Below are positions 11,006 to 35,279 of a stretch of DNA of 64,000 bases, in pieces. Position 1 is the stretch's first letter, and every line of letters starts with the position of its first letter. The stretch spans positions 83,435-147,434 of the forward strand of contig CAZDCD010000010.1 in NCBI GenBank assembly GCA_964503885.1, read 5' to 3'. The position numbers and the translations under genes are program-made. Under the pieces are notes generated by a model that saw only the letters and a program-made list of their open reading frames with translations, ran no database searches and was not told where the DNA came from. Source of the stretch: an uncultured Bacteroidales bacterium. Lineage in GTDB: Bacteria > Bacteroidota > Bacteroidia > Bacteroidales > UBA10428.

Positions 11006-11016
11006 GGCAAACCGAA

Positions 11017-13616: not shown

Positions 13617-13679
13617 AATTAGTACTATTAATCCTATAGAAATAGTAGCGTAAAATTAGCAAAAAGGTTCAAAATATCT

Positions 13680-15642: not shown

Positions 15643-15708
15643 ACCACAACAACAGGATCATAATCCATACACTTTGAAACCCTGTTGTAATATAATAATG
15701 TACAGTAT

Positions 15709-17547
15709 ATGCCAAAAAACCTTGCTTTTTTTCTGGCTTTAATCTGGCTGAACGTCCTATTTTCTGATACTTTTAGCCAGGAACCGCTTATGATCAATAC
15801 ATCAGCCAGAAAGATTACTTTTTTGGACGGCAAATGGCATTACATTGTCGATCCGTATGAGAACGGATATTACAATTACCGTTACGAGCCTTTTGACGAG
15901 ATGGAAGATCCTTCAAACGGCGGATATTATGTCAATAAAAAACCAGCCGATAAAACCGACCTGGTGGAATATAATTTTGATGAAGCACCCGTGCTGAATG
16001 TTCCGGGAGACTGGAATACCCAGGATGATAGGTTGTTCTATTACGAGGGGAGCATCTGGTACAAGAGATCCTTCGATTATGCTAAGGCTGATATAAAAGA
16101 CCGGGTCTTCCTTTATTTTGGTGCTGTTAACTACCAGGCCGACGTGTATATGAACGGAATAAAGCTCGGTCAGCATACAGGAGGGTTTACTCCCTTTGAT
16201 TTTGAGATCACCGGTATTCTTCGTCCGGGTGAAAATTTTGTGATCATTAAAGTCGACAATACCAGAAAAAAAGAAGGCGTACCTACCCTGAATACCGACT
16301 GGTGGAATTATGGCGGAATTACCCGTGAAGTGAAGGTTGTTGAAGTGCCCCCTACCTTTATCCGCGATTATTTTATTCATCTGAAAAATAGTGACTTAAT
16401 GACTGTTGCAGGATATGTAACCCTTGATGGCAAGCGCTGCAATTCAAAACGCGTCACTATCGTGATCAGGGGTACCGGTATAACAGCTACTATAATTACC
16501 GATAAAAACGGTTATGCCCCGTTTGAGATAGAGGCGAAAGGACTGCATCTGTGGTCTCCCGATGCTCCTGTGCTGTATGATGTAGATTTCATTGCAACCG
16601 GCGATACTGTAGCGGACAGGATAGGCCTCAGGACCATAAAAACCAGGGAAACCGATATTCTGCTTAACGGAAAACCAATCTTTCTCAGAGGAATATCCAT
16701 CCATGAAGAGAATCCCCTCAGGGGTAACAGGGCATACTCCGAAGCCGATGCAAGGTTACTCCTTGGCTGGGTAAAGGAGCTGAACGGTAATTTTGCCCGT
16801 CTAGCACATTATCCGCATAACGAAAATATGGCAAAAGTGGCCGATGAAATGGGAGTATTATTGTGGGAGGAGATTCCTGTTTACTGGACAATTGACTGGG
16901 AGAATACTGCCACCTTTAAAAACGCCAGGAGGCAACTTACGGATATGATTACACGCGATAAAAACAGGGCATCGGTAATCATCTGGAGTGTGGGCAACGA
17001 AACACCTGTGCAGGAGATGCGTACTCGTTTTATGGCCACACTGATCAGCGAGGCAAGAAACCTCGACAGTTCCAGGCTTATCAGTGCTGCGCTCGAACAG
17101 CACGGACTTGAAAATAACAACAACATCAGGGTAATTACTGATCCTTTAGCTAGTTACGTAGACATTCTCAGCTTTAACGAGTATATTGGCTGGTACGATG
17201 GCCTGCCCGGGAAATGCGATGAAATTACCTGGAAGATCAATCAGCAGAAACCGGTGATCATCTCGGAATTCGGAGCAGGCGCCTTGCTGGGATTCCATGG
17301 TGACAGCCTGACCCGTTGGTCGGAAGAGTACCAGGAGTATATGTACAGAAAATCGATCGATATGCTGGTGAAAATTCCTCAACTCAGGGGCATGACGCCC
17401 TGGATCCTGGCTGATTTCCGTTCCCCCAGACGCCCGCTACCCGGGATCCAGGACGGTTGGAACAGAAAGGGCTTAATTGCTGCTCCGTCGGGATCGAAAA
17501 AGAAAGCGTTCTATGTGTTACAGAAGTTTTATAAAAGTCTTGAATAA
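15709..17547 (+). CDS. GH2 glycosidase (beta-glucuronidase/beta-galactosidase-like), secreted
   Basis: 612 aa. Sugar-binding, Ig-like and TIM-barrel order, with NYGGITREVKV, WSVGNE (acid/base) and VIISEFGAG (nucleophile). Confidence 0.75.
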   Translation: MPKNLAFFLALIWLNVLFSDTFSQEPLMINTSARKITFLDGKWHYIVDPYENGYYNYRYEPFDEMEDPSNGGYYVNKKPADKTDLVEYNFDEAPVLNVPGDWNTQDDRLFYYEGSIWYKRSFDYAKADIKDRVFLYFGAVNYQADVYMNGIKLGQHTGGFTPFDFEITGILRPGENFVIIKVDNTRKKEGVPTLNTDWWNYGGITREVKVVEVPPTFIRDYFIHLKNSDLMTVAGYVTLDGKRCNSKRVTIVIRGTGITATIITDKNGYAPFEIEAKGLHLWSPDAPVLYDVDFIATGDTVADRIGLRTIKTRETDILLNGKPIFLRGISIHEENPLRGNRAYSEADARLLLGWVKELNGNFARLAHYPHNENMAKVADEMGVLLWEEIPVYWTIDWENTATFKNARRQLTDMITRDKNRASVIIWSVGNETPVQEMRTRFMATLISEARNLDSSRLISAALEQHGLENNNNIRVITDPLASYVDILSFNEYIGWYDGLPGKCDEITWKINQQKPVIISEFGAGALLGFHGDSLTRWSEEYQEYMYRKSIDMLVKIPQLRGMTPWILADFRSPRRPLPGIQDGWNRKGLIAAPSGSKKKAFYVLQKFYKSLE

Positions 17548-17835
17548 TAGTTCGTTGTAGAGATAATATCCGCTTTTAAGTCGGCGTATTGGGTATTTCA
17601 CAGGGAATTCCTTCTCATATAATGTTATGAAAACCCATCAGGTTGCATAGTGCGGAATTTACACTTTCCATGGGATTGAACTAATATTTGCAGGATTGCT
17701 TCCGGTTATCTTCATTTACTACCATATAATATATATTTCAATGAAAAATATCCAAATGATTTTTCTATATTTATTCGCAAAACCTGGTTATTTGGATGTA
17801 CCGGTTGTTTTTTGAAAACGTGTTGAACTAATCAA

Positions 17836-19956
17836 ATGCCACAGCAACATCTATTCATGTCCCTGAGAAGAGCAATAATTGCACTGAGCATTCCCCTTGC
17901 ATGTCTTACCCTAAGCCATGCACAGGAAAATACCTCCAAGGAATCAAACCCGGATACCATTCCGATTGATGAAGTTATTATTTCTGCTGCACGGATTCCT
18001 GTTACATACCGTTTGAACACAACGGCTGCTTCCATTGTCACTCCGTCAATATTGGAAGGTATGGCAAAAACCATAGCTGCTGATGAAGCACTCAGGCTTG
18101 TTCCCGGGGTCAGGGTTGAGAATCAGGCCGGCGGTTCACGGCTTCATATGTCTGTAAGAGGTCAGGGAATACTTTCTGAGAGGGGTTTAAGGGGGATCAA
18201 AGTGCTTATTGACGGCATTCCTGTGAACGATCCTTCGGGTTTTGCCCCCGACCTGTATGATGTCGACTGGGAAACAGTCGACAGGATTGAAGTGCTTCGC
18301 GGACCGGCAACATCCATCTATGGCGGAGGCGGTTCTGCAGGTGTGCTGAACATCATAACCCGTGACGGAGGAACAGCTCCGTTCAACGGAACAGTATATT
18401 CCGGAACCGGTTCGTATGGATTCTTTAAAGGTTTTGGTCAGATTGGAGGAACCGCGGGAAATATCAATTACAGGGTTTCGTATTCGCATATTGTGGGGGA
18501 TGCATACCGCGACCATGCAGCATATTGGGCTGATAACCTCAGCGAAAAACTTATCTGGACACCATCAGGTAAACTCAGGATCACCCAGGTGTTGATTGTT
18601 ACCACTTTTTTCAACCAGAATGCGGAGGGACTGAGTCTTGAACAGGTGGCTGAAAATCCGAGACAGGCCAACCCTGATGCCAATCCGTTCAATGAATACC
18701 AGAAAACAAACAGGATAACACAGGGCGTAATTTCGCAATACACAATCAATCAATACGCAGATATTCAGGCATATGGATTTATTCGTAGCTGGCGTTACAA
18801 AGAAACCAGCAACAAAGCCGCCCAATACCGTGATTTCGTGACACCGGGTTTTGGTGCACAGCTTGATCTGCATTTCGGAGCACAGCGCATTAGAAATCAT
18901 CTATCAATCGGAACCGATGCCCAATGGCAGACAATAAGCGAATACAAGCTTAAAAGCCTAAGTAATCCGCTAAGAAAAGAAAGTACCGATGAAGCAAACC
19001 TTGAAGATACACTATTGTTGGCAAACCAACTTATTAATCAACAAAGTACGGGCGTGTATGTTTTTGATAAACTGGAGATTTCCGGTAAGCTGAATCTCAC
19101 AGCAGGGTTTAGATATGATAATATCAGTAATGCACTGAACGATAAGTTGAATACAGGGAATAATTTGTCGGGGGAAAAGAACTTCAATAAGGTTACCGGC
19201 AGAATCGGGGTTGCTTATTCGCTTAACTCCTTTATAAGCTGTTATGCAAATTGGGCACAGGGGTTCATGCCTCCGGCAACCGAAGAGCTGGCAAGCAACC
19301 CGCTTTCATTCGGGGGATTTAATGAAAATCTTGAACCGGCCACTTCGGTGAGTAAGGAGATAGGGATAAGAGGGTTTGCAGGCAACCGTTTCAGGATTGA
19401 TGTGAATGGATTCTATATGACCACCGAAAAGGATTTTTTCAGGTTCAAGCTCTATCCTGCACGGGGAAACCAGGAAGTTTTTTATGGGAATACCGGATCA
19501 ACCGAACGATATGGAATTGAATCCTATGCAAGTTATTCTCCAGTGGATAAAATAATCCTTCAGGGCTCTTATACCTATTCACATTTCAGGTACACATCAC
19601 CCGACAGCCTGAAAGGTTTTTCACTGCCCAATTCACCGGAACATCAGGTATATCTGGATATTTCTTACAGGCTGGTTAAAAATCTTTCCATTGGAGCCAG
19701 CTATGAAATGCAGACGAAATGGTTCATATATACCGATGCAATTCACCATGATGTATTCCAGGATGGGTTTAACCTGTTGCATGCCCGCATATCCTATATA
19801 CCCGCATGGTTGGGGTTAAGCTGGGAATTCGGTGCGTTTGTTAGAAACCTCACAAACGAACACTATATTGCATTTACCGAACCCGATCCCGATGGCAATT
19901 GCTATCAACCTGCTCCCGGACGCGAATTTTTTATAAATCTGCGTGTGAGGTTTTAA
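17836..19956 (+). CDS. TonB-dependent outer-membrane receptor (non-SusC size class)
   Basis: 706 aa. Plug motifs DEVIISAARIP, RVENQAGG and IEVLRGPATSIYGGGGSAGVLNIIT, followed by a barrel ending ...FINLRVRF. Confidence 0.8.
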   Translation: MPQQHLFMSLRRAIIALSIPLACLTLSHAQENTSKESNPDTIPIDEVIISAARIPVTYRLNTTAASIVTPSILEGMAKTIAADEALRLVPGVRVENQAGGSRLHMSVRGQGILSERGLRGIKVLIDGIPVNDPSGFAPDLYDVDWETVDRIEVLRGPATSIYGGGGSAGVLNIITRDGGTAPFNGTVYSGTGSYGFFKGFGQIGGTAGNINYRVSYSHIVGDAYRDHAAYWADNLSEKLIWTPSGKLRITQVLIVTTFFNQNAEGLSLEQVAENPRQANPDANPFNEYQKTNRITQGVISQYTINQYADIQAYGFIRSWRYKETSNKAAQYRDFVTPGFGAQLDLHFGAQRIRNHLSIGTDAQWQTISEYKLKSLSNPLRKESTDEANLEDTLLLANQLINQQSTGVYVFDKLEISGKLNLTAGFRYDNISNALNDKLNTGNNLSGEKNFNKVTGRIGVAYSLNSFISCYANWAQGFMPPATEELASNPLSFGGFNENLEPATSVSKEIGIRGFAGNRFRIDVNGFYMTTEKDFFRFKLYPARGNQEVFYGNTGSTERYGIESYASYSPVDKIILQGSYTYSHFRYTSPDSLKGFSLPNSPEHQVYLDISYRLVKNLSIGASYEMQTKWFIYTDAIHHDVFQDGFNLLHARISYIPAWLGLSWEFGAFVRNLTNEHYIAFTEPDPDGNCYQPAPGREFFINLRVRF

Positions 19957-21695: not shown

Positions 21696-24600
21696 ATGCT
21701 GAGGACTTTTTTTGAGATATTGAATGAAGGTATGTTTTCATCCAAGGCTTTGAATAGAAAAGAACTGGACTGGAAGATTTCGGAATGCGGCAGGAGCAAC
21801 TGGCTTCATTTATACAAATGGTCGGTAAAAAGGCAATTTTTAATCTTTGCTGTCTTATTTTTCCTTTCGGCCAGGTTATTTCCGGCAACCATTACCAGCA
21901 ATGCAATGACAGGGAACTGGAGTACACCGGCTTCATGGGTAGGAGGTGTGGTTCCGGGTGCAGGGGATGATGTAATTATCGCAAACAATGCCAATATAAC
22001 TGTTAATGGTAATTATACCTGTTTAAGCCTGATCCTGAATGGTGGAAATCAACCCTCATCGGTGATCATTTCAGGAACAAATTCACTTACGGTGACAAAT
22101 ACCACAACTTTATTCTGCAATTCAAACAATGATTGGAAATCTGTAGTGGTAGATAACGGATCTTTTACTTCCGGTTCCGTAACCATGAATTCAACCAATA
22201 ACAACAGCCGGGATGCCTTTATTGAAATTGCATCAGGAAACGCTACTGTTTTGGGGGATCTCACCATGAATGCCAATATAAATAGGAATTATATCCGTTT
22301 CACCGGGGCAGGAATCTTAAATGTAGGAGGCAATATTTCAGGTGGTGGTATTACCAGTACATTTGGAGGTGGAGGAACACCCACATCGGGTACTGTAAAT
22401 CTAAACGGATCGGTAGCTCAATCAATTGATGGATATACATTTTACAATTTTACAGTGTCTGGTAGTGGAGACAAATCGCAGTCTGCATCAATAACTGTTT
22501 CAAATGATTTTACCATGAATGGTGGTAATTTTCTTTTAAACGGCAACAATAGTACTATTTCAAATCTTATATTGACTTCCGGTACTATTCAACTTGGCGA
22601 TAACAATTTAACATTATCCGGTACACAATCTGGTGGTTCAGCATCGAGTATGGTAGTTACCGATGGCAATGGATATTTGATCCGTAATGCCAATGCCACA
22701 TTGCCTATTATTTTCCCGGTTGGTTCTGACGGATTATATGATCCTGTTTCAATTACTGCAATAAATAACACAACCGGAACTATACTTGTAAGAACAACTT
22801 CGTATGCTGGCTTAGGACCTAAGTATATTTCCCGCTACTGGGATATGTTGACCAGCGTTGCTGGTAAAATAATTACTTCAATCTTTCAATACGAAGGCTC
22901 TGAAATATCCATAACTCCGAACACAATATATTTCCGGCCAAATCTGGGAGCATGGCAGCCACCATCCGGTACACAAACCTTTGGTGCAAATACAATCACC
23001 ATTACCGGTACATCAGATATTACAACAACAAATTCTTCCTGGACTGCCGGGGCAATCGGAACGTATTATTCATATCAGACTGGTAACTGGAACAATCCCA
23101 CAACATGGACATCAGATCCGGGAGGTACGACACAGATGGGTTCAACCGTTCCCGGGACTAATGATTTTGTAGTGATCCTGGATGGAAGAACGATTAGCCT
23201 TACCGGCAATGTTAACGAGGCCGACATTGATATATCAATCAATGCAGGCGGGATCATAGACATGTCTACATACCAGTTTACGTCCGGACTGAAAGCTTTG
23301 CGTGGTCAGGGTACTTTACAACTGGCCTCTGTCAATTTTCCGTCGGCGACCACCAATACTTTTATAATTACAGGAGGTGGAACGACCGAGTACAATAATT
23401 CAGTAAATTTTACTCTCCCTGCTACTCAAACTACCTATAATCACCTGACCATAAATGCCCCCGGCATTATTGCAACTCAATTGAACAACCTTACACTGAA
23501 CGGAAACCTGTATGTGAAACAAGGTACCTATCGGATAAATGACAATACTGCGAATAGAAGGCAACTGACTATTTTCGGAAATGTAGTCGTAGATAACGGA
23601 GCTTCGCTGACCACAGGCGCCGGAAATACATTTACAACAGCCGTAACTGGTGTAACAGGTGGTACTGCACCATTTTTAAACTATTATATTAATAATACAC
23701 ACCAGGTAATTCTGTATGGTGATTTTACAAACGACGGAACAGTACGCTTCACCAATCAGGCATATCCGGTATTTGATGCCTTTCCCAATCAGGGTGCTGC
23801 CACAGTTTATTTTATGGGAGCAACGAACAATACGTTAACTTGTAACAATACTACTGATTTTTACAATCTTGTCCTTGATAAAGGGGTTGATCAAACGTTC
23901 AAATTAACAATATACTCAACTGGTTATTCAAATTTCAGGTTGTTTGGGGCTAATACTTCAGGGGGCGATGGAGGTGGAAATAATCCTAATCTGAAAAAAG
24001 CCCTGTGGATAAGAACCGGAACCTTGGATCTAAAAGGTTTAACCATAATTCCCTCCTTGACTGAAGGAAATTGTGATTCCGGTCCGGGCGGTCCTAATTC
24101 TGATTTTTATATACCTGCCAACGGTGCACTGATCCTTGACGGTGCAGATGTAATTGTGCTGTCTACAGCTGATGATTACAGGGAGCTGAATGTGGCTTAT
24201 GGGGTGGCAGCCCCAAACAATACTGCGGCAGGAATTAGTCTGAGCGGATGCAGCTCCTTTTCAATATATGGCAAAATCAAAATCAACAACGGGTATTTTT
24301 CGACACGTGAATCAGGTGGATTTATTACCTGGGATGTAGCCTCGGGACAATTTGAGCTTAACGGAGGTCAGGTCGATGCTAAGCAGTTCAGGGCCGCCGG
24401 TGGTACAGGAGGACTGGCTTCTTATACACAGACCGGAGGTATGCTATACCTGCGGGGCCGCTTTCAGCGTACACCCTTACAATACACGACGGTCGATGAC
24501 CTTAAGGATTTCACATCAGCCACGATAAATACCAACCGTATAGCTGCTGCATTGGATGGTTCTGTTGCAACGTTTAACCTGAATGCTGCAGAAAACGTAT

Positions 24601-27600
24601 TTAGTATGTCGGGCGGCACCATGCGGATATATGACGTATGTGGTGCGGGTGGAGGACAAAACGGAGCGTTTGAAGTACTTTCTTCATATGCAAATATTAA
24701 CGTAACAGGTGGCACGGTTGAAGTAATCCCGACAACTGGTTCAGGTGCGGATGCGACCAGCTATATTCTGGAATCGAATGCCCCTGTTTACAACCTTTTT
24801 GTCAGCAGGGTAAGCGGTACAGCACCGGTACTGTTAAATACGTATCCGTTAAAAGTCTTAAAAAATCTTACACTTCAGTCGGGTGTGTTGAATGCAAATA
24901 ATTTTGATGTAGCTGTAGGCGGTAATTTCATCATTGCACTTGGTACTACATACACAACCGGCACCAATCGCACCATATTTAATGGTACAGGAACGCAGTC
25001 GTTTGCGATCAATCTCGCCACACCCCTTACCGTAAACAAGTTGATTGTAGACAAATCAAGTTCTGATGTACTCATACTAGATGGCACTCAAAATACCCTG
25101 AATATAACGGATTCGCTGAAGATTTTGAACAGCCGCTTTAACGATAACAGCAAAACAGTGAATTGTGCCGCCAACATATTCAATTCCGGATATCATCTCG
25201 GATCAGGAAAGATTGTATTGAACAGCAATGCTGTGCAAAACATTGACGGTAACGGTACGGGCATTTTTCAGAATCTTGAATTGAACAAACCTGCAGCCGG
25301 AACGGCAGTTGTCAATATGAATGCTGTTTTTACCATCAACGGTACACTTACTTTTTCAGGCGCAGCTGCCGGGTATAAACCGATGAATATCCAAAACAAC
25401 GAACTTATCCTGGGAACAGATGCAATTGTTGCAGGAGCTGATGCAAACCGGTATATCCAGACAAGCGGGAATGCCGGGGACGGCGGATTAACCAGGCAAT
25501 ATTCGGCAGTTTCGCCTTCGTTCACCTTTCCTGTAGGTGCATCTTCGACATCTCATGCCCTTCCTGCTTATACTCCGGCCACGCTGGGAATTAACGGTTC
25601 TCCTGCGGCGTTCGGGTCGATCACAGTTATTCCGGTTGGTTATGAACATCCTGCTACGATCAATAACGGGCGGACCCTGACTTATTTCTGGCGGGTAAAA
25701 TCAAACAGTTTTACATTGGGAACTGCTACAGTGACTCACGGGTATACTTACGATCAGAATGATGTGATTACCGGTGCCGGAATAACCGAGAATGGTTATG
25801 TGGCTGCACGCTATCAGGCTACAACCTATTCCTGGTCAAAAGGTACCGTAAATGATGTTGATGAGGCGGCCAATATTGTTGGTGAGCCGGGTACAGGTAA
25901 CTTTCTTGAAAATGTTGCATTTATTGATGGCGATTATACTGCCGGTGATGATGCACCCACCGACCCGTTTGGTGCACCTGTGATTTTTTACAGCAGGCAG
26001 TCTGCAAACTGGAATCTGGCAACTACATGGTCAAATGTAAGCCATACCGGACCTGCTGCTGCAACCATTCCGGGTTTGAACGATGTGGTAATTATCGGCA
26101 ATGGCAATACCGTAAATCTTACAGGCAATCAAAATTGTGCAGTACTGCAAATTGAAAACGGGTCAACACTTGATATTTATACCTATACAGGAAGTACATT
26201 CAGTATGGTGGTTAATCACCCTAATGGAAATGGGTTGTTTCAGGTAACCACGCCGAAAACTCCAAATAATACCATTCCAGGATTGTTTACTTTTCCATCA
26301 GGTGATTTTTCTGATTTTAATGTGCATGGCGGTACCACAGAATTTTACGATATAGATGGCACTGTCGGAGCACTGTATATATTACCCGCCAATGTTATCC
26401 AATACGGAAACCTGATCCTGAGGGCCAGGGGAGGAGATAACCTTGTATTACCGAATAATGCCGCAACCACTGTCTACGGGGATTTGACTTGTACCGGAAA
26501 TGCAACCACTGCATGGATTGCGATGTGCTGGAATACCAATATATGGCCTTACTTTTCGGGCGTATATAATCCGACGATCGAAAAAACAGTAACAGTTAAA
26601 GGGAGTATGTACGTTGATGCGGGTAGCTTTGAGTTTTTCAACGACCAGGCTCCGCAGCATTTAATTGTCGAGGGTGATGTTGTTGTTGCGCCAGGGGCTG
26701 TATTGGAGATCTATCCGAATTATCCGTTTGCTACTCCGGTGGTGAACAATACGATTGCAATAGGCGGTTCCCTGATAAACAATAACGTTGTTACACTAAG
26801 ATCGACAGGGGGAGGAAGAACATATACTGTGGATGCAACCTTTTTTGGTGAAAATTCGGCAAGTATTACAAATACCTCCGGTATTCCGACAACCACACTG
26901 AATAATGTCCTTGTAAATAAAGGCAGTTCACAATCAGATTCGTTAATTATAGATATTGGTGGAACTCTTAATACTTTAGCTGATGGCTGGCTTACTTTGC
27001 AAAATGGAACCCTGGGGTATTTGAGAACCAATCCCAACTCTGATTTTACCATTACTACAACAAGTCCGTTTACAATACCTACTACAGCAGGTCTTTATAT
27101 CGATTACAGCAATTCGGGCAACAGGGATATTCTTCTTGCTGTTGGCAATTCCGATGGCAATGATGTATACCTTAATGGTAAACTGGCTCTTATCAACGGC
27201 AATGTGTATATAGGAAATACAAATGGCACAACTGTAAGGAATAACGATATTGAATATTCTGGCGGAGGTTCATCAGAAATTGAAATTCAGGGTGGTAACC
27301 TCATTGTTAATGGGCAGATCCGAAGAAATCCCGCTACTTCAGCCGGGGTCTTGAAATATACACAGAGTGGTGGTCAGCTTGTGATCAACGGACAGAATGC
27401 CAATACTGGCAATGCAAAATTAGAAATATTAAATGCCGGAAGCCAGTTCAATATGAGTGGTGGATCTCTGACCATAGTCAGGGGCGGTGGAGGAAATACA
27501 TTCGGAGATCTGTACCTGAGACCTGCGAGCTCAACGGTAACAGGTGGTGACATTGTATTTTCCCAGGTTCCGCCCGTTGGTCCCGTTGTTGATGCAGTGC

Positions 27601-30600
27601 AGGATTACAGACTCGACGCAACAGTATCTTTGAATAACCTTACCATAACAGGTAAAACAGCGGGACCTGCCCGGAATGCTACAGTTACTCTTCTTATCAG
27701 TCCGCTAACTCTGAACGGTTCGCTTACATTAAGCAATAACAGAAGCTTTTTTGATGCCAATTCTACGTACAATATCAATGTTACAATTAACGGAAACCTG
27801 AATAATTCGGGAACCTATTCCCATTATTTGAATACAACTACATTCAATGGCAATATTCAGGCTATTACAGGTACTTCACCAACAACATTTTACGATCTGG
27901 TGGTGAATCCCGTAACAAGGCTCACCCTGAACGGTAATACCACTGTAAACAGAAACCTTACCCTGAGCAGCGGAACATTAGAGTGTGGAAATTACACTGT
28001 ATATGTTGCCGGGAACCTGAACAATAATGCAACCTACACGGATAATAACACAGGCGTTGAACTGAATGGCAGCAGTCTTCAATATATATCCGGAACAGGC
28101 ACATACGGCCAGCTTGCACTTAACAATACTGCGGGAGCCAGACTGAATAACAGCATAACCCTTGAAAAGAACCTTGTACTTACACAGGGTATCCTGGATA
28201 TCAACAAATATTTGCTGTCACTGGGTGTGAACAGCAATATTTCAGGAGCACCATTCAGCTCGGCCAAAATGATCACTTCCGACGGAGTTTTCAGTAATGT
28301 GGGAATCAATAAGTTCTTTCCGATAATAGGTGCTCCCACAACATTTACCTTTCCGTTGGGTACAACCGGAAAATACACACCTGCGGTCCTTAGTATTAAT
28401 ACCAATACCAATGTGGGTTCTTTAAGACTTAACAACATTAATACCCGACATTCTGCTGTAATTGATCCGGCAAATGTGCTGGACTATTACTGGGAAATGG
28501 AAGGTAATGGTTTAATGGGATTTAACGGAAATATTGTATTTAACTACCTCCAGGAAGATGTACTGGGCTCTCAGGAAAACAATTACCTTGCAGCAAGGTT
28601 ATTAACCCCTGCTACCAGCTGGAGCCTGACTTCCACAGTCGATGATGTGGCCAATACGATAACAATTAATTATGTCAACACCGATAATCTTAGCGGAGAA
28701 TATACAGCCGGCATTAGTACTGCTTTTCCGCCGGATATACCTGAATATACCAGCAATTCCAATGGAGACTGGACTGATAATACGATTTGGACACAAACCG
28801 GTGGTACTTTGTATCCTTGTCCTCTGGGTGGACCCAATGGTTTTATTGTTACCATTGATCATGAGGTGACTGCAGATGCCAATTATTGTTCGGCATACAA
28901 GACAACAATCAATAATACACTGCGTATTGTATCACCCTATTTCGGACATAATCTGGGTATTGTTACCGGCAACGGTACTTTATATCTTGAGAGTGGTGTG
29001 ATCCCTGCCGGACGGTACACAAGTTTTCTCGATTGTTCAAACGATGCAACATTGGAATATGGCGGTACTGGCACCTATATATTAATTGCAGACCTTTATT
29101 CCAGCGTTCCTAATATTCTGCTTTCCGGAACAGGTACAAGGAATATACCGAATAAAGATTTAACGATATGCCATAGCTTGAAGATTGGAACAGCAACCGA
29201 TGGACCAGCATTCGATAATACCCTGAATAACCGCAAATTAACAATTCTGGGTACAATGGAACGATATAACACCGGCGTATTCAAAAGCGGTTCAGGCGCA
29301 GGTGCTACAGTATCATTTGCCGGTTCATCGGCTCAAACAATAGGTGGAATTTTAGGCGATTTTACAGGCACAAATGCCTTTAACAATCTTGAGATCAATA
29401 ATGCTGCCGGATTAACTATCAACACAAACGGTGCCATTGAAGTAAATGGTAACCTTATGCTCACCAGCGGAGTAATCCATACAGCCACTGCAGATAAGCT
29501 TACGATCATTAATTCAGCCATGAATTGTGTAATTCCTGCCGGAGGTAGTTCATCGTCCTATGTTGACGGACCATTGATCAAACGGATAAACCAAAGTGAT
29601 AATTTCCTTTTCCCGGTGGGAGAAGGAACAAACCTTGGGAATAAGATCACCCTGATGACCACTATGACAGGACCTGCCTTATGGACCGTGGAGTATCATA
29701 ATCCCAATACATTTACTACGTTCCAGGCACCGCTGACCTATGTCAATCTTGATGATTACTGGAACGTTACAGTGCCTTCGGCAAATCAGGCTATTGTTGA
29801 CCTGAAATGGAATCCGGCAAGTGATCTGACTCCTCTTATGACACAGAATGGACTCTCTGATATGCGTGTAGCAGAGCACAACAGCACAGATTGGATTGAA
29901 ATTTCCTCTTCAGCAACAGGCGATAATTACAACGGTAGTGTACAGACAGTCAGCCGGATTTCATTCCCAGTGGCAGGTAAAAATGTAACCACTGCATGTA
30001 TTAATGTCACCAAACCAAGGGCGACCCTATCTCCCTCAGGACCTGTTTGCGGTGCGGCCGGAATACTGGTTTCCTTTACTCAATCACCGGGATTGAACTA
30101 TACCTTAAGCTATACCATAAACGGAGTACCCCAGGTAGATGTGGCTATCTCTTCATTGCCGTATACACTGCCTACCCCTGTTCCAGGTATATATAGGCTC
30201 ACAGCCTTTACTTACAATAACGGACTAAATAACGGTGTGGTTGATGCAGGTACAGTAACAGCTTATGACATACCTACCACGGCTGATGCCGGTTCGAATC
30301 AATCGCTTTGCGGGGCAACAGGTACAACACTGGCTGGTAATACCCCACTGGTAGGATCAGGATTATGGAGCATCGTAAGCGGTATCGGAGGTACAGTAGT
30401 TACACCCGATTCACCTGCAAGTGATTTTAACGGAACAAACGGTACAACATATACATTAAGGTGGACAATAAGCAATGGCTCCTGCACATCTTCGGATGAT
30501 GTGGTTATAGCATTTCCGCTGTTGCCCCTGCAGCCCGGTGCATACATTGTAAGTTCTCAGAATGTTTGTCAGGGCCAGAATGGTGTGCCATACAGCGTAC

Positions 30601-31100
30601 CAAATGATCCATCGGTTTCCTATACATGGGTATATGGCGGTACCGGTGCTACCATTAACGGTACGGGCAATTCTGTTACCGTTGATTTCAGTACATTTGC
30701 AACCAGTGATACTTTAAGTGTCAGGGCCACCAACGGATGCGGCATAAGTGCCCCCAGGAACATCGCCATAACGGTAAATGCACTTCCTGTTCCGACAATT
30801 ACCGGAACTGATACAACGTGTCAGGGAAATATCATTGTATACTCCACTGAGGCCGGAATGACAAACTATACCTGGTCAGTAACAGATCTTGATATTCCTG
30901 CAGCTCATACCATAATTGCTGGGGGAGGCATTACCGACAACAGCATAACCATTCAGTGGGACGGCTATGAATACCATAGAATAAGCATAAATTATGAAAC
31001 TGCAGCAGGTTGTACAGCCGCCTCAGCTACCGAGCTGGATATATGGATCTCTAAGATCCCGGATACCGGCCCTGCATATTATATACCCAATTCACCTTAA
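21696..31100 (+). CDS. Giant (3134 aa) secreted beta-helix-like surface protein with four GNW-led supermodules and C-terminal Ig/PKD-like modules; no T9SS CTD; ends TGPAYYIPNSP
   Basis: A single uninterrupted ORF rich in N/T/G/S. The hydrophobic segment FLIFAVLFFLSARLF lies ~45 aa after the first ATG, so the start is uncertain. Repeated motifs are listed in the findings. Confidence 0.9.
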   Translation: MLRTFFEILNEGMFSSKALNRKELDWKISECGRSNWLHLYKWSVKRQFLIFAVLFFLSARLFPATITSNAMTGNWSTPASWVGGVVPGAGDDVIIANNANITVNGNYTCLSLILNGGNQPSSVIISGTNSLTVTNTTTLFCNSNNDWKSVVVDNGSFTSGSVTMNSTNNNSRDAFIEIASGNATVLGDLTMNANINRNYIRFTGAGILNVGGNISGGGITSTFGGGGTPTSGTVNLNGSVAQSIDGYTFYNFTVSGSGDKSQSASITVSNDFTMNGGNFLLNGNNSTISNLILTSGTIQLGDNNLTLSGTQSGGSASSMVVTDGNGYLIRNANATLPIIFPVGSDGLYDPVSITAINNTTGTILVRTTSYAGLGPKYISRYWDMLTSVAGKIITSIFQYEGSEISITPNTIYFRPNLGAWQPPSGTQTFGANTITITGTSDITTTNSSWTAGAIGTYYSYQTGNWNNPTTWTSDPGGTTQMGSTVPGTNDFVVILDGRTISLTGNVNEADIDISINAGGIIDMSTYQFTSGLKALRGQGTLQLASVNFPSATTNTFIITGGGTTEYNNSVNFTLPATQTTYNHLTINAPGIIATQLNNLTLNGNLYVKQGTYRINDNTANRRQLTIFGNVVVDNGASLTTGAGNTFTTAVTGVTGGTAPFLNYYINNTHQVILYGDFTNDGTVRFTNQAYPVFDAFPNQGAATVYFMGATNNTLTCNNTTDFYNLVLDKGVDQTFKLTIYSTGYSNFRLFGANTSGGDGGGNNPNLKKALWIRTGTLDLKGLTIIPSLTEGNCDSGPGGPNSDFYIPANGALILDGADVIVLSTADDYRELNVAYGVAAPNNTAAGISLSGCSSFSIYGKIKINNGYFSTRESGGFITWDVASGQFELNGGQVDAKQFRAAGGTGGLASYTQTGGMLYLRGRFQRTPLQYTTVDDLKDFTSATINTNRIAAALDGSVATFNLNAAENVFSMSGGTMRIYDVCGAGGGQNGAFEVLSSYANINVTGGTVEVIPTTGSGADATSYILESNAPVYNLFVSRVSGTAPVLLNTYPLKVLKNLTLQSGVLNANNFDVAVGGNFIIALGTTYTTGTNRTIFNGTGTQSFAINLATPLTVNKLIVDKSSSDVLILDGTQNTLNITDSLKILNSRFNDNSKTVNCAANIFNSGYHLGSGKIVLNSNAVQNIDGNGTGIFQNLELNKPAAGTAVVNMNAVFTINGTLTFSGAAAGYKPMNIQNNELILGTDAIVAGADANRYIQTSGNAGDGGLTRQYSAVSPSFTFPVGASSTSHALPAYTPATLGINGSPAAFGSITVIPVGYEHPATINNGRTLTYFWRVKSNSFTLGTATVTHGYTYDQNDVITGAGITENGYVAARYQATTYSWSKGTVNDVDEAANIVGEPGTGNFLENVAFIDGDYTAGDDAPTDPFGAPVIFYSRQSANWNLATTWSNVSHTGPAAATIPGLNDVVIIGNGNTVNLTGNQNCAVLQIENGSTLDIYTYTGSTFSMVVNHPNGNGLFQVTTPKTPNNTIPGLFTFPSGDFSDFNVHGGTTEFYDIDGTVGALYILPANVIQYGNLILRARGGDNLVLPNNAATTVYGDLTCTGNATTAWIAMCWNTNIWPYFSGVYNPTIEKTVTVKGSMYVDAGSFEFFNDQAPQHLIVEGDVVVAPGAVLEIYPNYPFATPVVNNTIAIGGSLINNNVVTLRSTGGGRTYTVDATFFGENSASITNTSGIPTTTLNNVLVNKGSSQSDSLIIDIGGTLNTLADGWLTLQNGTLGYLRTNPNSDFTITTTSPFTIPTTAGLYIDYSNSGNRDILLAVGNSDGNDVYLNGKLALINGNVYIGNTNGTTVRNNDIEYSGGGSSEIEIQGGNLIVNGQIRRNPATSAGVLKYTQSGGQLVINGQNANTGNAKLEILNAGSQFNMSGGSLTIVRGGGGNTFGDLYLRPASSTVTGGDIVFSQVPPVGPVVDAVQDYRLDATVSLNNLTITGKTAGPARNATVTLLISPLTLNGSLTLSNNRSFFDANSTYNINVTINGNLNNSGTYSHYLNTTTFNGNIQAITGTSPTTFYDLVVNPVTRLTLNGNTTVNRNLTLSSGTLECGNYTVYVAGNLNNNATYTDNNTGVELNGSSLQYISGTGTYGQLALNNTAGARLNNSITLEKNLVLTQGILDINKYLLSLGVNSNISGAPFSSAKMITSDGVFSNVGINKFFPIIGAPTTFTFPLGTTGKYTPAVLSINTNTNVGSLRLNNINTRHSAVIDPANVLDYYWEMEGNGLMGFNGNIVFNYLQEDVLGSQENNYLAARLLTPATSWSLTSTVDDVANTITINYVNTDNLSGEYTAGISTAFPPDIPEYTSNSNGDWTDNTIWTQTGGTLYPCPLGGPNGFIVTIDHEVTADANYCSAYKTTINNTLRIVSPYFGHNLGIVTGNGTLYLESGVIPAGRYTSFLDCSNDATLEYGGTGTYILIADLYSSVPNILLSGTGTRNIPNKDLTICHSLKIGTATDGPAFDNTLNNRKLTILGTMERYNTGVFKSGSGAGATVSFAGSSAQTIGGILGDFTGTNAFNNLEINNAAGLTINTNGAIEVNGNLMLTSGVIHTATADKLTIINSAMNCVIPAGGSSSSYVDGPLIKRINQSDNFLFPVGEGTNLGNKITLMTTMTGPALWTVEYHNPNTFTTFQAPLTYVNLDDYWNVTVPSANQAIVDLKWNPASDLTPLMTQNGLSDMRVAEHNSTDWIEISSSATGDNYNGSVQTVSRISFPVAGKNVTTACINVTKPRATLSPSGPVCGAAGILVSFTQSPGLNYTLSYTINGVPQVDVAISSLPYTLPTPVPGIYRLTAFTYNNGLNNGVVDAGTVTAYDIPTTADAGSNQSLCGATGTTLAGNTPLVGSGLWSIVSGIGGTVVTPDSPASDFNGTNGTTYTLRWTISNGSCTSSDDVVIAFPLLPLQPGAYIVSSQNVCQGQNGVPYSVPNDPSVSYTWVYGGTGATINGTGNSVTVDFSTFATSDTLSVRATNGCGISAPRNIAITVNALPVPTITGTDTTCQGNIIVYSTEAGMTNYTWSVTDLDIPAAHTIIAGGGITDNSITIQWDGYEYHRISINYETAAGCTAASATELDIWISKIPDTGPAYYIPNSP

Positions 31101-31246
31101 TTAATGCGATGTACAGGTTGACAATAACAAAGAAACGGTTGATCAAAATGGTGAAACAAATACATAAAGAATACGATAAAGTAAATAGAATAGTGAATTT
31201 AATTCAATAACAATTATTGCTCATGTTTAATTTAAATTTTAGAAAG

Positions 31247-32215
31247 ATGAAAAGAGGTTTATTTTTGAGAACGTTGACAAGCGTTGCGGTAGCGATGTTT
31301 GTAGCTGGTGGACTGTTTGGCCAGGTGGCAGACGGTGATTATCAGGTGTACGATGCTAACAGGACTGCACCAACGAACATTGATTATGTTACGTTGAAAG
31401 CAGCTGGTACTACTATGGGGTATTATGCTTTACCCGATCCTTACTTTCACCCGAATTACGATGCCGGAAACGGGTGGGCGCTGACCGCAGGCTTTGTGTG
31501 GAACTGGACAGCACCGTCTGATCCGGGAACACCTCCGGCTTTCAATAAGCCTGGCGCTGCAAACTATGTTGAAATTACCTATTCACAGGCTGGTATTTAC
31601 AACATCAATGTGGCTGAAGAATCTCCGGCAGCGTATGGTGGATGCGCAGATGCAAGTCCGACTGTAATGAATGTTACTGTCATTGATCCGCCATCTGCCT
31701 TATTTACCACAGCCGATATTACTTCAGGCCTTTGCGGTGATCAGGCAGCACAGAGCGTGGCAGTTGCTATTACAGAAGCTATTCCGGATGCCCTTGGTGC
31801 ATTTGCATTTGCTGTTTCCGAAGTGGTTGAAAACCTCGATGCAGGTGGTACACCTGTCGGTGCTCCGCTCAGTACAACAACCGATTATGTGGATTTTCCG
31901 ACATCTGGTAAAGCTAACAGCGGGACGGCCGGAATGGTCGCTGCAACCCCGACATTCACGTATACCTTCAATTCATCTGCAATAACTGTGCAGAACAGTA
32001 TGCGTACAAGGTATACCTATACCTTGCTGAAGGCAACGGATGCTCCGGGAGCAGCAGCTGAAGGTATTATCTCAGCTATATCGGAAAAGTCCGACTATAT
32101 TTCGGGTACCGTAAATACATATCCTTTTGGTGCAAAAACCACCACGGTATTTGTCGTGAACCCGGCACCTGCAACTGGTCCTATTTATTATATTCCTAAC
32201 AATTTTGAATATTAA
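31247..32215 (+). CDS. Secreted protein (about 322 aa from ATG 31247) sharing an Ig-like module and the C-terminal TGPIYYIPN tail with the giant
   Basis: MKRGLFLRTLTSVAVAMFVAGGLFGQ signal. The module ...YVEITYSQAGIYNINVAEESPAAYGGCADASPTVMNVTV follows. It ends ATGPIYYIPNNFEY. Confidence 0.7.
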   Translation: MKRGLFLRTLTSVAVAMFVAGGLFGQVADGDYQVYDANRTAPTNIDYVTLKAAGTTMGYYALPDPYFHPNYDAGNGWALTAGFVWNWTAPSDPGTPPAFNKPGAANYVEITYSQAGIYNINVAEESPAAYGGCADASPTVMNVTVIDPPSALFTTADITSGLCGDQAAQSVAVAITEAIPDALGAFAFAVSEVVENLDAGGTPVGAPLSTTTDYVDFPTSGKANSGTAGMVAATPTFTYTFNSSAITVQNSMRTRYTYTLLKATDAPGAAAEGIISAISEKSDYISGTVNTYPFGAKTTTVFVVNPAPATGPIYYIPNNFEY

Positions 32216-32274: not shown

Positions 32275-33297
32275 TTGGCTACAAAAATTAATATATTGAC
32301 CCTTTTTATCATGGCATTGATACCTGTTGCCGGTCGCGGACAAAGTTTACCTTATGCCTGCGCCGGCACCAGGGCTGCCTATGGGGTCAGCGGATATATT
32401 AATTCGGCGTTCTACTGGACTGTCGACGGAGGAAGCATAATAGCCGACGAAAACGATACTGTTGTTGTGGAGTGGGATATGACGCGGAGAGTTCACCAGA
32501 TTCAGGTGGTTGAAATTACACCGTTCGGTTGTATAGGTGCGCCTGTTATGGCACAGGTAAATGTCAGGGCACCTGACGTTGAGATCGGTGATGAAGTGGA
32601 GATATGTAAGGATGATTCAGTGCTGTTTGATGCCGAGATCAATTACGATACCCAGTTATCGTATATATGGCAGGACAGCAGCACGCAAGCTACATTTTAT
32701 GGTAAAAACGGAGGTATTGTGTGGGTGAAAGCAACAGGACTTGACGGATGCTCGGATTACGATTCGGCTGTATTGATTGTTAACCCTTTACCTGTTGTAA
32801 ACCTTGGCCGTGATACAGCCCTTTGCGGTAATTCCTCACTCGAACTTGATGCCGGGTATTTTGCCATGTATAACTGGTCGACAAACCAGATTGTAAATCC
32901 CATTACTATAGGACCGACAAACCTTCCGGCCGATACTATCACCGTTGAGGTTACCGATAACAATGGTTGCATTTCTTCGGATACCATGGTGATTTATATG
33001 TGCGAGGTTGACAGGTTTTTTGCCAATATCCCCAACACAATAATTCCAAGTGATCCAAACAGCGCCAACCATACCTGGAGGATCGATCATATTGATCTGT
33101 TTCCGGGTGCGGTGGTGGAGATTTTCGACCGCTGGGGAAGGCTGATCTATCATGCCGAGGATCCTGATCCTGAGAATGTGTGGGATGGTGTATCAAAAGC
33201 CGGCAAGGAAATGCCGATGGATTCGTATTATTACGTGATCGATCTGAAATACAGGAATTCCGATCCGCTGGTCGGTAACATTAACATTATCCGGTAG
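32275..33297 (+). CDS. T9SS type-B sorting-domain (gliding-motility-associated C-terminal domain) protein, 340 aa
   Basis: TTG start and a signal peptide. Three Cys-containing Ig-like modules, then NIPNTIIPSDPNSANHTWRIDHIDLFPGAVVEIFDRWGRLIYH...WDGVSKAGKEMPMDSYYYVIDL...GNINIIR, which matches the CHU_C/type-B CTD pattern. Confidence 0.8.
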   Translation: MATKINILTLFIMALIPVAGRGQSLPYACAGTRAAYGVSGYINSAFYWTVDGGSIIADENDTVVVEWDMTRRVHQIQVVEITPFGCIGAPVMAQVNVRAPDVEIGDEVEICKDDSVLFDAEINYDTQLSYIWQDSSTQATFYGKNGGIVWVKATGLDGCSDYDSAVLIVNPLPVVNLGRDTALCGNSSLELDAGYFAMYNWSTNQIVNPITIGPTNLPADTITVEVTDNNGCISSDTMVIYMCEVDRFFANIPNTIIPSDPNSANHTWRIDHIDLFPGAVVEIFDRWGRLIYHAEDPDPENVWDGVSKAGKEMPMDSYYYVIDLKYRNSDPLVGNINIIR

Positions 33298-33388
33298 CGG
33301 ATACCGGATGAATAAAGCTATATTTGCGGAATTTTTACCTATTGAAAATAGAAGAGGAACAGTTTAGGAATCGTTGATTCCATATGCG

Positions 33389-34405
33389 ATGAAGAAATAT
33401 CTGATCATAATGAGTGTTCTGGTGGTTGCGGGTATATCCATAACCTATGCGCAGCAATTGCCCATATACAGCCAGTATATGATGAACGGGTTCCTGTTGA
33501 ATCCTGCTGTGGCCGGCCATGAAGGGTACACTTCCATAAATATCACCGGCCGTGAACAATGGCTGGGGTTAAAAGATGCCCCTTCGACCTATGCCCTCAG
33601 CGCCCAGACCCGGCTGCTCAAGAACAGCTTCATTTCACGGGGTTCTTCTATAAAACGCAGACGCCGTGCCATGTCGCGAAGCGGCAGGGTAGGGATTGGC
33701 ACATACATCTTTAGTGACTGGAATGGTGCCTTTAACCGGACGGGCTTGCAATTCACGTATTCGTACCATATCCCCCTGCGAAAATCACAGCTCTCATTCG
33801 GCGCTTCATTAACAGGCTACCAGTTCAGGATCGACGATAGCAAAATTAAATTGTACGACGAGAGCCAGTTCTATGGTGACATGCGTAAATCCACCCTTAT
33901 TCCCGATGCAAATTTCGGCGTCTATTATACCGACAGAAACATCTATGCAGGATTTTCCGCCCTGCAGTTGTTTGAGAATACATTCAAGCTTTCAAGTAAA
34001 GATCAGGCTGAATTCAAGATGGTCAGGCACTATTTTCTGATGGCCGGATACCGTTTCGACATGATCGATTTTGTATTTGTGGAACCCTCATTTCTCTTGA
34101 AGACAACCGATCAATTTGTATCACAGCTTGATGTCAATCTTAAATTTTATTTCAAGGAAGATTATTGGGCTGGTCTGTCTTACCGTACCGGCGGTAGCTA
34201 CAGCATATCCGAGGAATCGATACATGGCGGGGGAGCTTCCCTGATAATCATGGGAGGTGCCCGTGTGGATAAGTTTTACTTCGGTTATGCTTTTGATTAC
34301 ACATTAAGCGCCATAAGCAAATACAGCATAGGGTCACATGAAATCGTCCTTGCTGTAAAATTCGGCGACAATGCACGCAGGTACAGGTGGCTGAACAGGT
34401 ACTGA
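33389..34405 (+). CDS. PorP/SprF-family type IX secretion system membrane protein
   Basis: After the signal peptide, QQLPIYSQYMMNGFLLNPAVAG is the family's signature N-terminus. The size (~338 aa) and beta-barrel-like composition also fit. Confidence 0.85.
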   Translation: MKKYLIIMSVLVVAGISITYAQQLPIYSQYMMNGFLLNPAVAGHEGYTSINITGREQWLGLKDAPSTYALSAQTRLLKNSFISRGSSIKRRRRAMSRSGRVGIGTYIFSDWNGAFNRTGLQFTYSYHIPLRKSQLSFGASLTGYQFRIDDSKIKLYDESQFYGDMRKSTLIPDANFGVYYTDRNIYAGFSALQLFENTFKLSSKDQAEFKMVRHYFLMAGYRFDMIDFVFVEPSFLLKTTDQFVSQLDVNLKFYFKEDYWAGLSYRTGGSYSISEESIHGGGASLIIMGGARVDKFYFGYAFDYTLSAISKYSIGSHEIVLAVKFGDNARRYRWLNRY

Positions 34406-34409
34406 TGCA

Positions 34410-35279
34410 TTATTCTTCGCTGAATACACTTTTATAGCTTCCCAGATCAATATTGCGGATCTCATAGATGTAACTGTAAAGTTTGAGTTGCTTGCCTGCA
34501 TTATCGGTCTCGGAAAAATAGCTCAGGCTTCCTCCCGGGTAATACCCATAAGCATATTTCAGCATTAGTTCTCCGGAATTAGTATACACCTTTTTTTCAT
34601 GCAACAGACCTTTAGCGTTGTAATTAAACGTATCTTTTTCAGTAACCTGACTCTTATCCGCCATTATTCGTATTTCCTCTATTACGCTCTTCTGATTCTT
34701 GGAGTTATACGTGATGTTCTCTGAAACGGATCTCACACCATTGGGATATTGTTTTTTGTATTTGGTATACCGCATCACCGGCAAGTGATCATTGTTATAG
34801 CTAATTGTTGTTTGCGACCTGTTTTTTTTTCCTGGTCCGTACTCTGTGATTTTTACCGGTAAGGTATCCTGCGTGTAATCGATTGTTTTTTTACCGGTAA
34901 CGGCCAGTTCACCTGCTTTCTTTTCAAACCTGGTTCCTGATATTTTTGCGCCAACAGAATTGTATTCATATTTTTCAGCATACAGCAATGAATCGTCCGG
35001 CGAAAAGTGCTCTTCGGAAACGACTTTACCATCGTCCGTAAAGAATACAATATAGTTCGATATCTGATGGGTTACAGGATCAAAGTAAATGTCTCTTACC
35101 GGCCTCATCTCCGAATCAAAAGTTTTTTGCCTTATCGTAAAGTTTTTCGTGGTTGGCCTGCCGTTGATGATTTCACGGGACAGGGTCAGGTGAATTCTTA
35201 CCGAATCGGTTTGTGCTGTAGCTGGCAGCAACAGAATAAAGCATGCGGATGCTAACAATATCGCAGGTGTATTTCTCAT
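34410..35279 (-). CDS. Secreted protein built of short Tyr/Lys-rich beta-hairpin-like repeats (function unknown)
   Basis: Signal MRNTPAILLASACFILLLPATAQ. Recurrent xYxYNxxGxxxxE-type units (EKYEYNSVGAKIS, TFNYNAKGLLHEKKVY, KYAYGYYPGG). Confidence 0.55.
   Translation of the reverse strand: MRNTPAILLASACFILLLPATAQTDSVRIHLTLSREIINGRPTTKNFTIRQKTFDSEMRPVRDIYFDPVTHQISNYIVFFTDDGKVVSEEHFSPDDSLLYAEKYEYNSVGAKISGTRFEKKAGELAVTGKKTIDYTQDTLPVKITEYGPGKKNRSQTTISYNNDHLPVMRYTKYKKQYPNGVRSVSENITYNSKNQKSVIEEIRIMADKSQVTEKDTFNYNAKGLLHEKKVYTNSGELMLKYAYGYYPGGSLSYFSETDNAGKQLKLYSYIYEIRNIDLGSYKSVFSEE

Follow-up and report, generated by a model that had tools for sequence, protein, structure and literature searches.

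Within a 64,000-nucleotide stretch of DNA from an uncultured Bacteroidales bacterium (GTDB lineage Bacteroidota; Bacteroidia; Bacteroidales; UBA10428; assembly GCA_964503885.1, contig CAZDCD010000010.1, positions 83,435 to 147,434), hereafter the window, the open reading frame (ORF) list and translations place four co-directional genes in one block, encoding proteins of 3134, 322, 340 and 343 amino acids. The first two, which we call the giant and ORF2, carry neither the type-A nor the type-B form of the CTD (C-terminal domain) belonging to the T9SS (type IX secretion system) and end in nearly the same short peptide. The third, ORF3, bears a CTD of type B; the fourth is a PorP/SprF-family outer-membrane protein. 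Here we describe the conservation and genomic linkage of the shared tail and put forward, tentatively, a role for it as a docking peptide that would allow CTD-less proteins to use the CTD of a neighbor.

The giant (21696..31100, + strand; ORF list and translation) is a CTD-less surface protein and the proposed tip of the assembly discussed below. Its N-terminus is hydrophobic and Sec-type, its body is long and repeat- or beta-helix-like, and its C-terminal region contains PKD_6 domains (PF19408; 45.6 bits against a cutoff of 25). PKD_6 is the sole Pfam family in the protein, and NCBIfam gives no match. The last PKD_6-like domain (approximately residues 3030-3120; 30783..31055, + strand), recognized as two stretches by Pfam and also by our own repeat hidden Markov model (HMM), abuts the tail IPDTGPAYYIPNSP (31056..31097, + strand). 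The core of this tail, TGPAYYIPN, lies at 31065-31091, two residues short of the stop; the C-terminus as a whole reads ..DTGPAYYIPNSP (also excerpted as ..IWISKIPDTGPAYYIPNSP).

ORF2 (31247..32215, + strand), the proposed middle subunit, has its best start at the ATG at 31247; a mechanical alternative is the TTG at 31217, and the 322-residue version is identical to a database protein (P0001). Its signal peptide is of the signal peptidase I type, ending ..FG|Q with no Cys, and is followed in an AlphaFold2 (AF2) model by two Ig-like beta-sandwich domains, D1 (about residues 27-149) and D2 (150-305), and then by the tail PAPATGPIYYIPNNFEY (32162..32212, + strand). Here the core is TGPIYYIPN (32174-32200), four residues short of the stop, in a C-terminus that reads ..ATGPIYYIPNNFEY (also excerpted as ..VFVVNPAPATGPIYYIPNNFEY). 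No Pfam or NCBIfam model matched ORF2.

ORF3 (32275..33297, + strand), the proposed base or adaptor, consists of a signal peptide, a PKD_6-like domain at the N-terminus of the mature protein (residues 23-100; 32341..32574, + strand; Pfam and repeat HMM), which is the proposed acceptor of the tail, two more Ig-like domains and a type-B CTD (33013..33294, + strand) that begins ..FFANIPNTIIPS. The CTD is recognized both by PF13585 (CHU_C; 1.5e-15, 57.5 bits against a cutoff of 27) and by TIGR04131 (6.3e-12, 45.5 bits against a cutoff of 35). The PorP/SprF-family protein (33374..34405, + strand; TIGR03519 1.5e-72, PF11751 2.5e-75) matches TIGR03519 over its full length (244.5 bits against a cutoff of 90.55; model positions 1-292 of 292) and is presumed to be the carrier and anchor of the ORF3 CTD. 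ORF3 and this protein are a standard member pair of the type-B CTD/PorP class.

The two tails were first noticed in a sequence-only reading of the window, whose coordinates and peptides proved exact when checked against sequence and translation by script. The 27-nucleotide stretches encoding the cores differ at eight positions, five of which are synonymous third positions and three of which fall within the Ala/Ile codon. Since the surrounding DNA is merely 33-36% identical, the tail did not arise by DNA duplication; the earlier view that identity is kept at the peptide level, with no recent DNA duplication, thus stands. In all six frames of the window, the pattern G[PS].[YFW][YH][IV][PA]N occurs twice, at precisely these two C-termini, against 0.003 occurrences expected from 300 residue shuffles. 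Neither the type-B CTD (TIGR04131/PF13585) nor the type-A CTD (TIGR04183/PF18962, Por_Secre_tail) was found in the giant or ORF2 with NCBIfam and Pfam, and merely 2-4 residues follow the motif. As the same reading had noted, nothing CTD-like is encoded in any frame in the gaps behind the two stops (146 and 59 nucleotides, respectively), and the IPN of ORF3 (33028-33036) does open a complete CTD.

How widely is the tail conserved? ORF2 has 239 homologs in a 90%-clustered database, all of them "hypothetical proteins" of roughly 310-340 residues from Bacteroidales-type metagenome-assembled genomes (MAGs), and an exhaustive profile search yielded 439 clusters at 50% identity with E<=1e-3, or 294 with E<=1e-10. 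Nearly all sequences used in our analysis come from uncultured organisms. The ending NP.P.TGPIY[YH][IV]PN.[FY].[YFL] is present in 120/120 of the ORF2 homologs listed, and NP.P.TGPIYH[IV]PN ends essentially every complete family member, even where overall identity falls to 25%. Few segments of the protein are as conserved as the tail in an alignment of 118 sequences, where N305, P306, P308, T310, G311 and N318 do not vary. It was also present in 131 of 147 fetched cluster representatives; the 16 without it comprise mostly truncated fragments and proteins with a near-variant (TGPIYKISN, for example), along with one unrelated sequence. As judged from these alignments, the tail is under strong purifying selection. 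Within it, TGPIYH is steadier than IPN, which is replaced by ISN, IDN, IGN, INN or LAN in many family members, such that the invariant core is TGPIYH rather than the part that resembles a CTD start.

To place the tail in its genomic context, representative genomes of GTDB were scanned once with the ORF2 alignment, giving 69 loci, and synteny was counted in 68 species genomes. The loci come from MAGs of Bacteroidales, Rikenellaceae and Tenuifilaceae and from a single isolate, Perlabentimonas gracilis M08_MB. Of the 68 genomic ORF2 homologs, 66 carry the tail, both exceptions being frameshifted assemblies. The sequence-only reading had named enrichment next to PorP/SprF genes as a property to look for, and this is what the loci display: the gene after ORF2 encodes a small type-B-CTD protein homologous to ORF3 in 63/63 loci, and a PorP/SprF gene follows in 57/58. 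Upstream, the gene preceding ORF2 is itself tail-bearing, ending [ED][TP]GP.[YF][YH][IV][PSE]N.., in 22 of the 54 loci with enough upstream sequence. These upstream proteins are mostly 1,100-3,300 residues long and have several unrelated N-terminal architectures, and all end in a PKD_6-like domain plus tail; many database fragments of other giants have the same [ED][TP]GP.Y[YH][IV]PN ending.

The tails fall into two classes according to the position of the gene. ORF2 tails always contain GP-I-Y, whereas those of giants contain GP-[ASQGN]-Y, and in several giants the T is replaced by P (..EPGPAYHIPN). A systematic difference of this kind is easier to reconcile with two distinct acceptor sites than with a single shared one. 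The position of the motif within proteins is strict. The sequence-only reading had held that frequent internal occurrences would speak against a specific role; in 770,000 residues of fetched ORFs, some of them chosen for carrying the motif, all 310 occurrences of T[GS]P.[YWF][HY] lie no more than 10 residues from a C-terminus, and none is internal. The many internal PKD_6 linkers of the giants are likewise without it. Among 4,118 fetched ORFs, we found no "Rosetta-stone" fusion in which a single polypeptide combines a tail with an adaptor domain. The tail is too invariant to yield a covariation signal with the acceptor, and its last residues (F.Y versus W.[PN]) vary independently of the ORF3 type.

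Several features of these loci are worth recording alongside the counts. Two tandem PorP/SprF paralogs follow the ORF3 homolog in L003, L007, L031, L048 and L060. The window ORF2 is nearest to those of L003 and L004, and the window ORF3 is nearest to those of L043, L046 and L056, whose ORF2 proteins are distant and end ..IPN[DN]W..; such discordant similarity rankings suggest shuffling of modules between operons. Tail-bearing giants, at least two of them, from Tenuifilaceae and Perlabentimonas MAGs (L191 1-853, ending ..KIPETGPEYHVPNNFAN; L192 1-952, ending ..KIPETGPQYHIPNTHGQ), lie outside any ORF2-ORF3-PorP block. Since such stand-alone giants exist and the N-terminal parts of giants vary, the data fit exchangeable tips on a constant base. 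There is also a nearly invariant motif inside ORF2, ALPDPYFHPNY (residues 61-71; 31427..31459, + strand; conservation tables). In its family form, ALPDP.YHPNY, this D1 motif looks by eye like the tail core P-[IV]-Y-H-(I)-P-N; it may mimic the tail in cis or resemble it by chance.

A second set of CTD-less PKD_6 proteins, found among matches to the C-terminus of the giant, ends ..LP.TSPI[YW]HN, a tail without IPN. A metagenome scan with a DNA pattern for P.TSPI[YW]HN followed by a stop yielded 116 stretches. We fetched 80 of them, and in 75 of those the motif is a true ORF end. Because the CTD-B and PorP HMMs used for the metagenome loci are narrow, the corresponding counts are lower bounds. 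In 50 of 64 of these sister loci, the signal peptide of the next gene's product leads straight into a PKD-like domain, with a conserved mature N-terminus (Q[LMV][AT]MPD.V[CY][IV]G); of these 50 products, at least 31 have a CTD-B and 11 more are cut by contig ends. A second tail-like protein (..TS.I[YF]H[RHQFY]) is encoded upstream in 35/47 loci, and tail class again follows gene order, with ..SPI[YW]HN in the gene adjacent to the adaptor and ..S.I[YF]H[RHQ] in the distal gene. The minimal sister adaptors, at 193-199 residues, contain just two domains, a single PKD-like domain and a CTD. The adaptor family has 1953 matches at E<=1e-5, with a median length of 279 residues among the 120 listed, most of which have the Q..MPD.V N-terminus. 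This sister system is an independent recurrence of the tail/adaptor design.

The sister loci (L072, L073 and L075-L154) vary in composition. Their CTD-less members, which end ..TS.I[YWF]H[NRHQFY], include proteins with Ice_binding domains, their type-B-CTD adaptors are very small (193-322 residues), with named database homologs from Paludibacter and Bacteroidales MAGs, and PorP and sometimes a PorE-like OmpA protein come after the adaptor. L073 encodes, in order, an Ice_binding protein (..VTTLINHF), a PKD_6 protein (..STSPIWHN), a 199-residue protein made of a PKD-like domain and a type-B CTD, PorP and a PorE-like OmpA protein. L072 encodes two tail-bearing proteins and then a 2568-residue type-B-CTD protein with a PKD-like domain at its mature N-terminus. 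In L082, L087 and L138 (for example, L082 4834-5619), the gene after the tail encodes a protein with an acceptor-like N-terminal domain and no CTD that ends ..TITIKPRPKIL, and the CTD-B protein is encoded two genes on. This arrangement hints at longer chains and further tail types.

Where might such a tail bind? In tandem PKD_6 arrays, an NP.P linker precedes the first strand of the next domain (consensus of our repeat HMM: VTVNPLPVPTITGDTSVCAG..), and the tail directly follows the same linker. Internal repeats start at HMM position 1-2, and the first domain of every CTD-bearing partner starts at about position 12-16, right after signal cleavage; the adaptor's first domain therefore lacks the linker and first-strand positions. 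In ORF3, the repeat-HMM match (7e-12) begins at position 16, at residue 27, and the Pfam PKD_6 match, which at 19.4 bits is under the cutoff, begins at model position 14. The CTD-bearing giant of L072 aligns from HMM position 15, three residues past the predicted cleavage site, and the L073 adaptor, judged by its predicted cleavage site, conforms as well. The mature N-terminus of ORF3, Q-S-L-P-Y-A-C-A-G, starts six residues ahead of a conserved Cys; the pattern Q.LP.AC.G recurs in 59 ORF3 homologs, and in an alignment of 32 sequences, conservation reaches 90% or more at Q23, L25 and C29. One candidate arrangement, a simple completion of a missing strand, was rejected, as tail plus ORF3 N-terminus exceeds a canonical PKD_6 repeat by approximately 6-9 positions.

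The distribution of this N-terminal domain is graded along the gene order. Its V.E....GC signature, searched as a regular expression, is present at the N-terminus of 64/64 ORF3 proteins, 43/64 ORF2 proteins and 0/15 giants and, in the sister system, of 41/58 adaptors, 32/58 middle proteins and 0/25 distal proteins. A comparison of ORF2 D1 with the ORF3 N-terminal domain by hhalign gave a weak match across this motif (42% probability, E 2.6e-4). In the AF2 model of ORF2 (predicted local distance difference test score, pLDDT, 91.6; predicted template modeling score 0.83), the last strand spans residues 299-305 and residues 306-322, the tail, have no secondary structure. The tail is coil with a pLDDT of about 87 in the full-length model and 72 in a model without D1, and DSSP detects no strand pairing of the tail in either model. 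The models are thus compatible with a tail that would be a partly free extension outside the beta-sandwich. Foldseek searches of both models against the PDB returned generic tandem Ig domains (titin, antibodies), with no pilin among the 50 best matches listed for either model and no adhesin lead, and sequence searches of the PDB with the PorP protein and ORF3 returned no relatives.

One reading of these observations, which we prefer while regarding it as a possibility still short of probable, builds on the donor-strand idea raised in the sequence-only reading: the tail would be a docking peptide, conserved at the C-terminus, that lets CTD-less proteins use a CTD in trans. The locus would then encode a single long surface adhesin divided into three polypeptides joined head-to-tail: the giant, a variable tip with a tail only; ORF2, a middle piece with a PKD-like N-terminal domain and a tail; and ORF3, a base with the same kind of N-terminal domain and the type-B CTD, bound by its cognate PorP/SprF protein. 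The tail, emerging after the last Ig-like domain at the place of a further domain's first strand, would attach, through strand addition or complementation, to the PKD-like domain at the N-terminus of whichever protein comes next toward the cell, with the tail of the giant binding ORF2 and that of ORF2 binding the N-terminal PKD-like domain of ORF3. The assembled chain would be topologically equivalent to one SprB-like type-B substrate, a single CTD/PorP pair would export and anchor all three proteins, and alternative tips encoded elsewhere in the genome could be exchanged. More tentatively still, we consider that these loci could represent a general and so far undescribed Bacteroidota strategy of "CTD in trans", in which tails of the TGPIYH and TSPI[YW]HN families would act as donor peptides that clip CTD-less proteins onto a small adaptor, and each modular, exchangeable, non-covalent fiber would be served by one CTD/PorP pair.

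We favor docking because the tail stays invariant where identity elsewhere in ORF2 drops to 25% and the two copies in the window differ at five synonymous sites; because tail, type-B-CTD and PorP genes follow one another so regularly and a further tail often lies upstream; and because the giant and ORF2 lack a CTD despite their Sec-type N-termini and Ig-like adhesin architecture. The recurrence of the design in the sister system, including its minimal adaptors, the three tiers of the N-terminal PKD-like domain, with none at the N-terminus of giants and distal proteins, and the agreement of tail class with gene order in both systems argue in the same direction, as do the geometry, in which the tail follows the NP.P linker and the adaptor domain starts at HMM position 12-16, and the placement of the tail outside the beta-sandwich by AF2. 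From these observations we infer the physical contacts, the identity of the acceptor and co-export. Because cargo crosses the very large barrel of the T9SS in folded form (PMC9251779), export of a docked chain is conceivable.

Several points weigh against docking as we have drawn it. The tail (HMM positions of about 9-17) overlaps the N-terminal segment that ORF3 retains (12-17), making strand completion inexact. The coil of the ORF2 tail is modeled fairly confidently by AF2, with or without D1, and some intramolecular packing is possible. ORF2 D1, the putative acceptor for the giant, is weakly PKD_6-like by hhalign, and roughly a third of ORF2 proteins do not match the V.E....GC expression. 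Synteny cannot tell ORF3 from PorP as the partner, since the two always co-occur. Finally, we found no report of T9SS co-export of a non-covalent complex in the searchable literature.

If PorP is the partner, the tail could instead be a minimal secretion or anchoring tag, read directly by the PorP/SprF-like carrier or the T9SS translocon through mimicry of the start of a type-B CTD, and ORF3 would be merely another cargo of the same PorP. The near-constant presence of PorP at the loci is in keeping with this idea, and the distal half of the ORF2 tail ([IV]PN.F.Y) does resemble the opening of the CTD-B in ORF3 homologs ([IV]P[NA].F[TS]P). The sequence-only reading had placed the tail exactly where a type-B CTD would begin. 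The partial likeness of IPN holds, but the IPN half is the less conserved one, is degenerate in giants and is missing from the sister tail, and the core, TGPIYH, lies outside it. Although conserved motifs of the type-B CTD are needed for secretion and for pairing with the cognate carrier, in F. johnsoniae there are five such motifs spread across about 100 residues, each of them required (PMC12618676), and a tag of nine residues would be unprecedented. A direct tag also leaves unexplained why conserved 193-199-residue PKD-like plus CTD proteins are encoded behind tail genes, and we consider it unlikely, though still the most serious rival of docking. The same likeness of IPN to a CTD start had raised the idea that the tail is the remnant of a lost CTD, or an artefact of a frameshifted, truncated or decaying type-B CTD gene. 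We reject this, with near certainty: the same stop position and tail recur in hundreds of independent assemblies, no frame downstream encodes anything like a CTD, and the tail is under purifying selection throughout the family. Frameshifts that would restore full CTDs were not seen.

Could the tail act without any partner, as an intramolecular cap that confers stability or protease resistance on its own last Ig-like domain? Its pLDDT in the monomer models is above the very low values usual for free ends. However, the tail is better conserved than the domain it would cap, the last domains of tail-bearing proteins differ (PKD_6 in giants, D2, which matches no Pfam or NCBIfam model, in ORF2), it is absent from the many PKD_6 domains, both internal and terminal, that CTD-bearing proteins have, and neither its tight linkage to adaptor and PorP genes nor the lack of strand pairing by DSSP would be expected of a cap, which strikes us as improbable. 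A processing site, where cleavage would be followed by covalent transfer to a second protein or to a glycolipid, perhaps through a PorU-type sortase-like peptidase, is a still more doubtful proposition. P-x-T-G or P-x-T-S stands directly before the core, recalling the LPXTG of sortases, and T9SS type-A cargo is cleaved and ligated by a sortase-like mechanism. Nevertheless, no peptidase is conserved across the loci, and the motif is followed by neither a hydrophobic segment nor a charged tail, just 8-12 mostly polar or aromatic residues after TG. In addition, several giants have P in place of the T, and PIYH, which would belong to the leaving group, is as conserved as TG, which would be unusual.

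How does the proposed docking compare with known systems? The pair formed by ORF3 and the PorP/SprF protein is canonical, adjacent and conserved across genomes, like SprB/SprF and Fjoh_3952/3951 of F. johnsoniae and PG1035/PorP of P. gingivalis. In described type-B substrates, the CTD engages PorP (PMC9143113; PMC12618676) and the adhesin bears its own CTD, whereas here the giant and ORF2 have none and the CTD is on a small separate protein. The ORF3/PorP side thus belongs to a class already known; the shared tail on CTD-less proteins is well supported, and the docking mechanism is a proposal. Static adhesin operons carry a PorE-like OmpA protein (PMC12618676; PMC9143113), as do some of the sister loci. 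The sprC-sprD-sprB-sprF operon of F. johnsoniae likewise co-encodes extra proteins with a type-B adhesin and its SprF carrier, and SprC also moves along the gliding track (PMC12635249), but we found no sequence relation to our proteins, as ORF2 and the body of the giant have no NCBIfam or Pfam match.

The proposed logic, in which a terminal peptide of one subunit would bind an Ig-like domain of the next, is that of type V pili (FimA/Mfa1) and chaperone-usher pili. In pili, the tip subunit lacks the acceptor or donor that other subunits have, and giants and distal proteins similarly lack the N-terminal domain. Unlike type V pilins, the proteins described here have no lipoprotein signal or lipobox Cys, no FimA/Mfa fold and no sign of an N-terminal propeptide removed by a protease, and the putative chain, rather than a homopolymer, would be a hetero-oligomer of defined composition with a T9SS CTD at its end; strand exchange is suggested by analogy. 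As a short element at the extreme C-terminus that is independent of protein family and genomically linked to a dedicated partner, the tail also resembles sorting signals such as sortase LPXTG and PEP-CTERM, but it lacks the transmembrane helix, basic tail and linked dedicated peptidase of those signals. We found no description in the searchable literature of such tail peptides, of CTD-in-trans adaptors or of CTD-less or piggy-backed T9SS cargo with such tails.

Prediction of T9SS cargo currently looks for a CTD of type A or type B. If docking is correct, very large surface adhesins of Bacteroidota are, as an entire class, escaping secretome prediction, on the scale of at least 294 clusters at 50% identity plus a second tail family in metagenomes. 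The T9SS would then be able to deliver multi-protein fibers that are pre-assembled or docked sequentially, tiny "gliding motility-associated C-terminal domain" proteins of no obvious function would be explained, and the 9-12-residue tail could serve as a compact, portable surface-display tag for Bacteroidota. Should PorP instead turn out to recognize the tail directly, no other T9SS-linked sorting signal known to us would come close to it in shortness.

Finally, we note some features of the surrounding DNA. A secreted repeat protein of 289 residues, with no match in Pfam, is encoded convergently behind the PorP gene (34410..35279, - strand). Its BLASTP homologs of about 290 residues, with 20-49% identity, flank the operon in 22 fetched loci, either convergent directly after PorP or on the same strand directly before ORF2; examples are L001 8416-9378, L030 7382-9320 and L191 983-1864, the last behind a stand-alone tail-bearing giant. 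This protein may be a fifth component of the operon. The rest of the window is ordinary chromosome, encoding glycoside hydrolases, a TonB-dependent receptor, PurL and DnaE. Positions 4535-19956 contain a polysaccharide-utilisation-like cluster, with glycoside hydrolase (GH) family members GH115, GH9 with CelD_N and GH2, an alpha-amylase, a TonB-dependent receptor and an esterase, which is unrelated to the tails.

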